A stretch of DNA of 35,597 bases from a virus (Duplodnaviria > Caudoviricetes): IMG/VR virus record IMGVR_UViG_3300016265_000654, positions 1-35,597 of that record. The stretch is one strand, 5' to 3'. Shown here piece after piece: positions 15,750 through 18,517 of the stretch (position 1 is the stretch's first letter; the number at the start of each line of letters is the position of its first letter). Under the pieces are notes generated by a model, which made no database searches, was not told the DNA's origin, and worked only from the letters and a program-made list of their open reading frames with translations. The translations under genes and the position numbers were made by a program.

Positions 15750-16670
15750 TCAGGCGATCAGCACGCCGCTGAACTGCGGCCCGCTGCTGGTGAGGTTGCC
15801 GGCCCAGCCGATCAGCTTGACGATGGCATCCTGGTTGACCGCCTGACGTTCGCCCCCGATGGGAACGAAATTCCGGTCGGCGTGCGGCCGGAAATGCAGG
15901 TACTTGGTGTTCAGGAACCACATGTGGTTCGCCGTCGCCGCCGAACCGATACCGCCGTCGAGGACGACATCGGAGGCCATGCCTGCGCCGTAGTATTTCA
16001 GCGAGGCGAAGCCCGCACCGGCCATGCTGGAGCCGCTGTCGGAGATGCGCTGAATCGACTGCAGGGACTGCAGATAGAGGCGGTAGTAATTGTTGTCCGC
16101 CACGATCAGGTCCGGCTTGTCGGTGCCGCGGATCAGCTGCACCGCGACCGAATCCATATACTGCTGGATGTTCGACGCGGTGACGGCGGAGCCGCCATTG
16201 GTCGTGCCGGAATAGGCGACCGAGCGCCAGAACGACCACGTCACGCGGCTGATGCCGCCGTAGGTGCCGGTCGACGGGCTGTCGGGAACTGCAGCGGCAA
16301 GACCGGTGATGTTTTTGCCGCTGTTGCCGGTGCCATCAAGGTAGATGTCCGAGCCGATGCGGTTGGCCAGCTGGGCCTCCGCGACGGCCATGCGGCCATC
16401 CAGCAGGTCGATGATGGCTTCCTTGCCCGAGTTCTGGATCATCTCCAGGCCCGAGATCGACACCGCCGACGCATACTGCGTGATCGAGAACTGCGCCGCG
16501 CTGATCGGCGAGTTCTGCGACACGTTCAGCACCTCGTAGCCCGAGTAGCTGTTCGTGTTGTTGGTCGTGGTGTCGTTGTACATGATCTCCTGCAAGATCA
16601 CGTTACCGCCCGAGAACGTCTTGACGTTCCCGCGCTCCTTGAGGCGACGCAGCAGGGCGTTGTTGTTGGT
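15750..16670 (-). CDS. Major capsid protein, exon 2 (306 aa)
   Basis: TNNNALLRRLKERGNVKTFSGG...QNSGKEAIIDLL...WAGNLTSSG; no native RBS/start; joins exon 1 in frame to give 333 aa. Confidence 0.9.
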   Translation of the reverse strand, partial: TNNNALLRRLKERGNVKTFSGGNVILQEIMYNDTTTNNTNSYSGYEVLNVSQNSPISAAQFSITQYASAVSISGLEMIQNSGKEAIIDLLDGRMAVAEAQLANRIGSDIYLDGTGNSGKNITGLAAAVPDSPSTGTYGGISRVTWSFWRSVAYSGTTNGGSAVTASNIQQYMDSVAVQLIRGTDKPDLIVADNNYYRLYLQSLQSIQRISDSGSSMAGAGFASLKYYGAGMASDVVLDGGIGSAATANHMWFLNTKYLHFRPHADRNFVPIGGERQAVNQDAIVKLIGWAGNLTSSGPQFSGVLIA

Positions 16671-17368
16671 CCTTGCCTTACGGCCCGGCTCTTTATCCGG
16701 GCCCTGCATCTTATGATTCGATGCAGAGGAGACTATCTCATCGCCAGTTTCGCTTGCTTGGTTGCGCTGATCTTCGCGCCGTGCCCTTTCGGCACCTCAA
16801 GCTGCGCCAATCTACGTTTCTCGTTGCTTTCGGCGCTTGGGCGGTAGCCGTTGGCCACCCTAACCTTTGCCGCCTTGGCCTGCGCCCCCGGAGGGAGCAA
16901 GAAAGAGATTTCGTTTTCGTTCAGAAGCAACCCGCGACTGCGGTATTCCTTCATCCAGAACAGTTCTCTTTCGCGCTTCACGATCACCGAAACGTCACCC
17001 GGCAACACTTCCACCGGCTTGATCTGAAACTTGTCGGCGTGATCGTTCCACGCTGCCTGCAACCGTACCGAAGAATGCTTTCCGGCTTTCAAAAGGCAGC
17101 GATGCTCTCGCATCCGCTTCCCTATCCTGCCAGCGGTGCAGCCGATGTAGGCCGCGCCCGTCAAACCATCCTCCAGCTTGTAGATCGTCACCATTCGGGA
17201 TTCCCCTCTGTGGTTTGATAGTGGCGCCCCGCGCTCGTGGGATCTGGCTTCCGCCTCGTCCTAGTCGTTACACCTTCCGCAGCCCTTGACTATCCTCTGC
17301 GGCTTGGCTCGGTATTGGCATTCCAGCTTTTTACCGAATTCACGGGGTTTTACAACGTCTGGGAGTTA
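16671..17368 (-). ncRNA. Group I self-splicing intron (IA-like, 698 nt) in the major capsid gene
   Basis: Exon 1 ends in U, intron ends in G; P1 ACAACGUU/GACGUUGU with U.G at the splice site; P (AAUUCGGU), Q (AAUACCGAGC), R (GUGUAACGACUAG), S (GAGAUAGUC); pairings P3, P4, P6a, P7, P8, P9, P9.1 all traceable. Confidence 0.92.
16733..17194 (-). CDS. Intron-encoded GIY-YIG homing endonuclease (153 aa)
   Basis: TIY...YIG, conserved R (KRMREH), E (RERE) and N (LLN); basic NUMOD3-like tail; located in the P8 loop. Confidence 0.88.
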   Translation of the reverse strand: MVTIYKLEDGLTGAAYIGCTAGRIGKRMREHRCLLKAGKHSSVRLQAAWNDHADKFQIKPVEVLPGDVSVIVKRERELFWMKEYRSRGLLLNENEISFLLPPGAQAKAAKVRVANGYRPSAESNEKRRLAQLEVPKGHGAKISATKQAKLAMR

Positions 17369-17449
17369 AACGTTGTCGGCAAGTTCGCCGGAACGCGACT
17401 GGATGTTCGTCGCGATGATATCGCTGATCGAACTGTTTGCGAAAGCCAT
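17369..17449 (-). CDS. Major capsid protein, exon 1 (27 aa)
   Basis: AGGAGAG RBS, then MAFANSSISDIIATNIQSRSGELADNV followed by an in-frame TAA that begins the intron. Confidence 0.9.
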
Positions 17450-17470: not shown

Positions 17471-18517
17471 TTACAACCGCTCCGAGAGCCCGTCGAATTG
17501 CTCGGCCAGGAGGGAGCGGCGATCCGCCGTCTTTGCGCTCGTCGGCCCTCCGGGTGCGGAGGTGCGAACGGAGACTGCGGCTGCCCTGGCGGCTTTCGCC
17601 GCCTTGTCTGCCTGGGCTTTCCGGTCTGCAAGGGCTGCGGCCTGTCTGGCCTCGACCTGCTTGGCGAAAAGCTCTTCATCCAGACGAAGGGCTTTGTCGT
17701 ATGCGTCTTGAAGCGTGGTCGCGACGCCGCTCTGTAGAAGCTGGATCATCGTCGGCCGAGCCGCCTCGAAATGTTCGGCCTTCGTTGCAAACTGGGAAAC
17801 CTCGCTCAGAAGCGCGGCATTCGCCGCCTCTTCCTGCTGCTGCTTCCAGCCCGACACCTCGCCACGAATTCTCACGAGTTCGTTTTGAAGCGCCACGAAG
17901 TTGGGATCGACCGGAGCCTGTGGGGCGGGTTGACCCTGCGCGGACAAGTCTATGCCGTAGGATTGGGCGAGTCGATAGAAATAATTCAACTTCTCCTGCG
18001 GCGCGGAGGTGCGCAGGATATTGTCGGCTTCCATCAGCGCCTTAACCGCCGTTGGGGCGTCGATTCCAAGCCCGCGAATGGTCGGCATGTAGGGCTCGAT
18101 CGCCTGATTCATGGCGTCGGCAAATTCGGCTTTTGCGCGGATCGGCTCGATTCCGGCGCGCATCTGCTCTTCGCGCTGGTAAGCGTATTCCTGCAACCGC
18201 GGATCGGCTTTCAGCCATGCGTCGTGGTATTCCTTCTTCCACGACGACGGAGGACGCTTCCAGACCGGCTCCTCGACGGGCTCGGCGGTCTCGGGCGCCG
18301 GGGCGGTTTTTGCGGCCTTGGACGCGGGCTGGCCGTCCGCCCGGGCGAACTTGCCGGTCGCATCGCGCGCGCGATCCTGCGCGGGCTTTTCGGCCTCCGG
18401 CGCAGCCTCGGTCTGCGGCTCGGGCGCTGGCGCGGGCTGCTCCGCCTCGATCGCGCTGAATTGCTCGGCCAACAGTTCCTTGCGGCTGTCGCTGTCGACC
18501 TTCTGGATTTCGCTCAT
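17471..18517 (-). CDS. Capsid scaffolding protein
   Basis: Acidic/Pro-rich N-terminus with RD..GKFA, helical body, immediately upstream of the capsid gene. Confidence 0.75.
   Translation of the reverse strand: MSEIQKVDSDSRKELLAEQFSAIEAEQPAPAPEPQTEAAPEAEKPAQDRARDATGKFARADGQPASKAAKTAPAPETAEPVEEPVWKRPPSSWKKEYHDAWLKADPRLQEYAYQREEQMRAGIEPIRAKAEFADAMNQAIEPYMPTIRGLGIDAPTAVKALMEADNILRTSAPQEKLNYFYRLAQSYGIDLSAQGQPAPQAPVDPNFVALQNELVRIRGEVSGWKQQQEEAANAALLSEVSQFATKAEHFEAARPTMIQLLQSGVATTLQDAYDKALRLDEELFAKQVEARQAAALADRKAQADKAAKAARAAAVSVRTSAPGGPTSAKTADRRSLLAEQFDGLSERL

Follow-up and report, generated by a model that had tools for sequence, protein, structure and literature searches.

A probably self-splicing and mobile group I intron with a predicted GIY-YIG endonuclease in the major capsid gene of a phage

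The td intron of phage T4 interrupts the thymidylate synthase gene and carries the GIY-YIG endonuclease I-TevI, the 3′ end of whose ORF overlaps the ribozyme core; a hairpin hides the I-TevI ribosome-binding site and delays I-TevI translation, td splicing is inefficient without this hairpin, and a late promoter inside the intron frees the site (PMC2988022). A preference of phage group I introns for nucleotide-metabolism genes is still stated and is described as an open puzzle (PMC12350094), with which the Bastillevirinae introns agree (PMC11878797). Published introns also interrupt genes for capsid, tape-measure, tail-tube and terminase proteins (PMC3706429, PMC7886860, PMC10448857, PMC2504315); the initial annotation, which placed the classic phage introns mostly in nucleotide or DNA-metabolism genes, overstated the rarity that this implies. 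The major capsid gene itself is split in the lactococcal phage Tuc2009 (PMC3706429, PMC2504315) and in mycobacteriophage LittleE, where removal of a probable group I intron was established by RT-PCR and N-terminal sequencing (PMC3706429). Delta and Zeta crAss-like phages have group I introns with endonucleases in their capsid genes, sometimes several per gene, as predicted from protein domains (PMC7886860). Group IA introns of virion genes are described from prophages of the Bacillus cereus group (IA1/IA2, in tape-measure, tail-tube and terminase genes; PMC2504315) and from the tape-measure gene of ICP1, whose intron is spliced (PMC10448857); many of these open with a stop codon, and similar cores are found with different endonucleases.

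The locus reported here is well supported as a further case of this known element, a mobile GIY-YIG group I intron in a phage capsid gene. Unlike the td intron, it lies in a major capsid gene and has no P2; its ORF of 153 aa ends in a short, unrelated C-terminal part and sits in the P8 loop, its hairpin covers the AUG as well as the ribosome-binding site, and no internal late promoter was found. The ORF of LittleE lies on the opposite strand and belongs to another nuclease family (PMC3706429), and both LittleE and Tuc2009 differ from our phage in capsid family and host. The crAss-like carriers are large Bacteroidetes phages (PMC7886860), whereas ours is a 35.6-kb phage of 64% G+C, and the Bacillus prophage and ICP1 introns occupy other host genes in other phages. 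Our search of an incomplete library found no paper on introns of this capsid family, and the database of PMC11835236 may hold related ones.

The stretch analysed, hereafter the window, is an entire virus record of 35,597 bases, rated complete, with 63.6% G+C. PHROG matches place the virion genes on the minus strand, among them the terminase (27659-26208), the portal (23374-21125) and the major head gene, and the parts of the capsid locus described below are on that strand. The gene upstream of the capsid (17471-18517; 348 aa) has no family match and is likely the scaffold protein, judged from its position. A glycosyltransferase-like gene (24585-23995), an FkbM-type methyltransferase gene (24194-23367) and an MptE-like gene (14477-13542) also lie inside the virion module and are possible virion-modifying enzymes.

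Capsid exon 1 (17369-17449) comprises 81 nt or 27 codons, has an AGGAG ribosome-binding site a short way upstream, and encodes a peptide that shares 96-100% identity with the N-termini of relatives lacking the intron. It is followed at once by the TAA that opens a 698-nt insert (16671-17368) ending in G; such introns commonly begin with a stop codon (PMC3984707, PMC2504315). Exon 2 (15750-16670; 306 codons and a stop) aligns with PHROG 9953 (major head; E 7e-98) starting at profile position 29, and joining the exons gives 333 aa with a single terminal stop. The interruption after codon 27, and the 333-aa product of removing 698 nt, had been proposed from the letters of the window, and intron-free relatives now fix the boundaries. 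We compared the best 80 of 595 confirmed IMG/VR relatives of the capsid: codon 27 is joined straight to codon 28 in 69, so the alignment with intronless homologues that had been suggested as a check bears the split out; eight have an insert of 694-733 nt at the window's site, and in three the DNA retrieved does not include exon 1, though L025 among them retains the 3′ part of the intron. One relative that is contiguous at codon 27 (L048) has another group I intron after codon 13 (1638-2455), in which a long insert precedes a contiguous core scoring 68 bits against RF00028. Among cultured phages, Bradyrhizobium phage ppBjS10J-1, Stenotrophomonas phage BUCT555 and Myxococcus phage Mx8 have the closest capsids, at 49-52% identity, and in the ppBjS10J-1 capsid a region homologous to exon 1 stands uninterrupted at the N-terminus. 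Exon 1 is thus a conserved part of the protein, which supports the earlier proposal that full-length capsid depends on removal of the insert. As also predicted, a mechanical ORF finder mis-starts the capsid at 16709, where an in-frame ATG opens a 319-aa ORF.

We conclude that the insert is very probably a group I intron that splits the capsid gene, likely splices itself and likely spreads as a selfish element. The helix halves named in the initial annotation (P1, P3, P4, P6a, P7, P8 and the P9 hairpins) were all found at the places implied. P1 (17352-17376) pairs 17376-17369 with 17359-17352 over 8 bp, and the last base of exon 1 is the U of its U.G pair at the 5′ splice site. The 5′ half of the core (17227-17347) holds P3 (17347-41/17233-27), P4 (17338-33/17313-08), a short P5, P6 (17307-06/17274-73), P6a (17302-297/17282-77), the P7 5′ strand (17268-62) and P7.1/P7.1a (17261-17240). 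The 3′ half (16671-16746) holds the P8 3′ strand (16746-42, pairing with 17226-22), the P7 3′ strand (16735-30), P9.0, P9 (16726-16704), P9.1 (16701-16684) and the terminal G (16671); the loop of P8 contains the endonuclease ORF. The P, Q, R and S elements of a group I core are all present.

Covariation was assessed in 17 aligned 5′ halves, 16 from the window's site and one from the next codon, with the structure drawn from the window's copy. Paired bases occupy 91.9% of cells, and two-sided changes affect 20 of 40 pairs (P3, 4/7 pairs; P6a, 5/6), a level reached in 0/500 shuffles, which ignore kinship; controls with the helices slid along are 29-43% paired. The third P5 pair has no support in these 17 introns, and P7, whose strands are nearly invariant, rests on complementarity and conservation rather than on covariation. 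P7.1/P7.1a, which occurs in two variants among the relatives, is paired in 71-94% of cells with two-sided changes; it bears out the extra element between P7 and P3 that had been noted as IA-like. The evidence thus supports reading the 698-nt insert as a group I intron, which we call IA-like because of this P7.1/P7.1a insert; phage introns fit the group I subgroups poorly (PMC11878797). The U.G pair at the 5′ splice site is present in 16/17 aligned copies, and in the seventeenth the site is shifted by one codon. Across the ORF, P8 consists of 5-12 contiguous pairs in 17 of 19 copies, whose sequences differ widely, and of three in the other two; the intron ends in G in 19/19, and P9.0 is present in 16/19, with one compensatory swap (CU/AG to AG/CU) in L090. 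Folding energy is low for the 3′ half (z -3.49) and not unusual for the 5′ half alone (z 0.21).

The covariance-model check that had been proposed gave a divided answer. Across the whole window Rfam RF00028 found no match; on a 751-nt stretch it matched P3-P7 in part (17350-17226; 22.1 bits, E 0.0027), below its cut-off of 50. The model misses the window's intron because the ORF splits the core. Of 11 introns picked among those sharing the window's core motif, 8 match RF00028, five of them above the cut-off. No second core motif was found in the window, and blastn of the core against cultured phages returned partial matches only, at 69-79%. Two words are invariant in all 19 aligned introns, CACGAGCGC before the P3 3′ strand (17238-17230) and GATAAAGAGC in the P9.1 loop (about 16697-16688), and L048 and L088 contain similar words, which possibly reflect a tertiary contact typical of this intron lineage.

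P10, which is dispensable in some group I introns, amounts to 1 bp at most with the 3′ exon in the window's copy and to at least 4 pairs in 5/19 copies. Its absence here, together with the 470 nt that separate the core halves, would fit an intron that is real but depends for splicing on a protein helper, be it a host chaperone, the ribosome or its own endonuclease acting as a maturase, and some Bastillevirinae introns are indeed spliced in vivo and not in vitro (PMC11878797). We regard such dependence as rather unlikely, because all helices of the catalytic core are present and covary, and ORF-less relatives that share the motif have the scores of ordinary group I introns.

The endonuclease gene (16733-17194; 153 aa) lies in the P8 loop, with its TAG stop inside the P7 3′ strand; in 19/19 copies the ORF passes through the P8 3′ strand and stops no more than 4 bases from the start of the S element. 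Its Pfam GIY-YIG match falls just under the cut-off (21.3 against 22.6 bits). Residues Y5, Y16, G18, R27, H31, E77 and N92 are invariant among 10 aligned relatives, and the conserved Tyr, Arg, His, Glu and Asn are presumably those with catalytic roles in GIY-YIG enzymes. The sole sequence matches in a profile search of the PDB were to the catalytic domain of I-TevI (1ln0/1mk0; E 1e-9), and a structure prediction that is confident over residues 1-90 (pLDDT >90) and poor in the C-terminal part superposes on that domain at an rmsd of about 2 Å. Motifs, profile match and model together uphold the homing endonuclease that had been proposed within the intron, and give it a predicted I-TevI-like fold.

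A hairpin at the start of this gene (17190-17214), new in this analysis, has a lower stem (17214-11/17193-90) and an upper stem (17206-04/17199-97) and covers both the Shine-Dalgarno-like GAGG (17208-05) and the AUG in 17/17 distinct copies. Mean stem length is 4.18 bp, against 3.34 with the arms swapped (0/5000 as high, kinship uncontrolled), and the lower stem changes together with codon 2; its folding energy alone is not unusual (z 0.19). P8 and the hairpin lie only a few bases apart, with no promoter found between them, and a scan for internal promoters of the endonuclease gave one site where 0.5 was expected, which lends no support to such a promoter.

If the intron follows the usual chemistry of group I, a guanosine bound in P7 would attack the U.G site in P1, and exon 1 would then attack after the terminal G, positioned by P9.0, to yield the message for the 333-aa capsid. 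On unspliced RNA, ribosomes would halt at the TAA that opens the intron. The start hairpin would keep ribosomes off the core, which the endonuclease ORF overlaps at P8 and P7, and splicing could then proceed, as in the T4 td precedent. The predicted endonuclease would cut intron-free capsid genes of co-infecting phages, into which the intron would be copied.

The RNA-seq check for the junction was run on 8 of 20 listed runs, examined as contigs, 6 of them RNA-labelled. None of the 8 runs showed a spliced junction: every exon-exon join in them reads GTG or GTA at codon 27, as intron-free alleles do, and no contig covers the intron in the 6 RNA-labelled runs. A spliced product would join 16670 to 17369, whereas the recurrent join runs from 16671 to 17370. 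We therefore rejected these 698-nt-skipping joins as splicing, since they retain the base at 16671, lack 17369 and read GTG at codon 27; this GTG join is the intron-free allele, which also appears in DNA-like runs and in L002-L012. The joins in RNA runs and the lack of intron cover in RNA contigs thus neither favour nor disfavour splicing. Spliced RNA not being seen in the runs examined, and the 319-aa ORF opened by the ATG at 16709, could also be accommodated by a decaying insert that does not splice, with the capsid made from that ATG or the phage defective. We find this hardly credible: three relatives (L022, L031 and L058) have a stop in the frame from the ATG, just ahead of exon 2, the exon 1 protein is 96-100% conserved in intron-bearing copies, helix pairing has been kept through substitutions, and L001 and two other runs contain intron-bearing contigs that are nearly identical.

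A capsid tree was built from 70 distinct coding sequences, comprising the window and its relatives, with L025, L035, L044 and L048 set aside. The intron is present in 8 of these alleles and absent from this site in 62; its presence needs 7 changes on the tree, much as with shuffled labels (mean 7.7; 132/500 as low), and the intron-bearing L039 is nearly identical to the intron-free L053, L055 and L056. Codon 27 is GTT in 8/8 intron-bearing and 5/62 intron-free alleles; it ends in T where the intron is present because the U.G pair of P1 requires that T. Endonuclease and capsid histories were compared over 17 intron-bearing loci (L090 and L160, in which a second intron cuts exon 2, were set aside). 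A single endonuclease clade of the 8 introns whose capsids share at least 90% identity with the window's was rejected (p-AU 7e-82). The capsid of L082 is 53% identical, its endonuclease domain 69% identical and its core the closest (83%), whereas L039 has a capsid 92% identical and an endonuclease 44% identical to those of the window. Runs X1 and X20, both DNA-like, each contain contigs with the intron and contigs lacking it. The patchy distribution and the conflicting histories of endonuclease and capsid, both read from sequences, are as expected of homing; repeated loss or recombination could also underlie or add to the scattered presence.

Further inserts occur in the window's capsid family at about codons 13, 28, 53-57, 63-72, 140-146 and 160. 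The capsid genes of L123, L160/L161, L170 and L090 have two inserts each, and some of these inserts are too short for an ORF. L088 and L089 (about 1820-2530) share the window's insertion site, endonuclease family and start hairpin with a different ribozyme core; from these two, endonuclease and ribozyme appear to have been exchanged separately.

The initial annotation had also raised a possible checkpoint role, in which the intron would time capsid synthesis or make it sense GTP. Full-length capsid of the window's phage would require intron removal, and group I splicing does use a guanosine cofactor (PMC3984707). The distribution on the capsid tree speaks against the suggestion: 62/70 distinct close alleles do without the intron, its presence is unclustered, and it can be present in one allele and missing from a nearly identical one. 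The endonuclease has been kept intact and conserved, as would be expected while an element is still homing, and the introns at several other sites of related capsids indicate repeated invasion of a conserved gene. No ligand-binding feature was found beyond the ordinary P7 site, and the intron bears no sign of domestication. A checkpoint role is accordingly very improbable, and we retain the selfish, self-splicing intron as the preferred reading.

The wider lineage was surveyed with an exact core motif taken from the window's intron, a choice biased to that intron's kin. It occurs in 123 stretches in 24/64 parts of IMG/VR, or about 340 estimated overall, and in 89 stretches in GTDB genomes. Host genes were assigned by the nearest long ORF rather than by splice mapping, and many loci are near-copies, for instance in about 10 Phenylobacterium-type bins. 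The IMG/VR set comprised 70 distinct loci among 80 with long flanks: 32 lie beside head genes, 12 beside tape-measure, 2 beside tail-sheath, 3 beside DNA polymerase and 4 beside RNA polymerase genes, and 17 are unassigned. The 32 head loci consist of 29 major head (PHROGs 9953, 1328, 267, 283, 334, 3437 and 1357), one head protease and two recognised by tblastn. The 78 GTDB ORFs include 18 major head, 23 tape-measure and one terminase; the rest are 11 of DNA, RNA or nucleotide metabolism, 2 non-host genes and 23 unassigned. Virion genes are thus the neighbours of 46/53 assigned loci in IMG/VR and 42/53 in GTDB. For another group I core motif, taken as a control for ascertainment bias and with 77 distinct cores, we counted 5 major-head, 1 scaffold and 5 polymerase or helicase neighbours, most being unassigned, in a comparison that scanned 79 of 143 flanking ORFs at a stricter E-value and included many giant-virus contigs.

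The window's core motif is also found in capsid and tape-measure genes that belong to prophages of cultured bacteria (L341, L364, L375, L387, L342 and others). The carriers, which include Zymomonas mobilis, Companilactobacillus, Ligilactobacillus and Bacillus, offer testable systems. In two bins the motif is clustered, with copies L386, L391 and L397 in one and L343, L349, L352, L373, L376 and L409 in the other; one bin is labelled Patescibacteria and one Bacteroidetes, the copies lie beside RNA polymerase, helicase and NrdA genes, and both are likely binned intron-rich large phages.

We propose with some hesitation, and as a doubtful rather than a probable reading, that these loci belong to a large IA-like lineage specialised on virion genes, in which a promoterless endonuclease is freed from its hairpin only after splicing and cuts rivals late. 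Our search, made in main texts within an incomplete library, found no paper on a virion-gene intron lineage. Such a lineage would occupy capsids of several families, tape-measure and tail-sheath genes rather than DNA-metabolism genes. If it is real, it would overturn the textbook bias, and the cutting of rival capsid genes would be timed to late infection.

Unless the intron is recognised, annotation of the capsid gene goes wrong across this phage group. The virion-gene counts in the two collections bear on why phage introns seem to prefer nucleotide-metabolism genes, and that preference may stem from the lineages that happened to be studied first.
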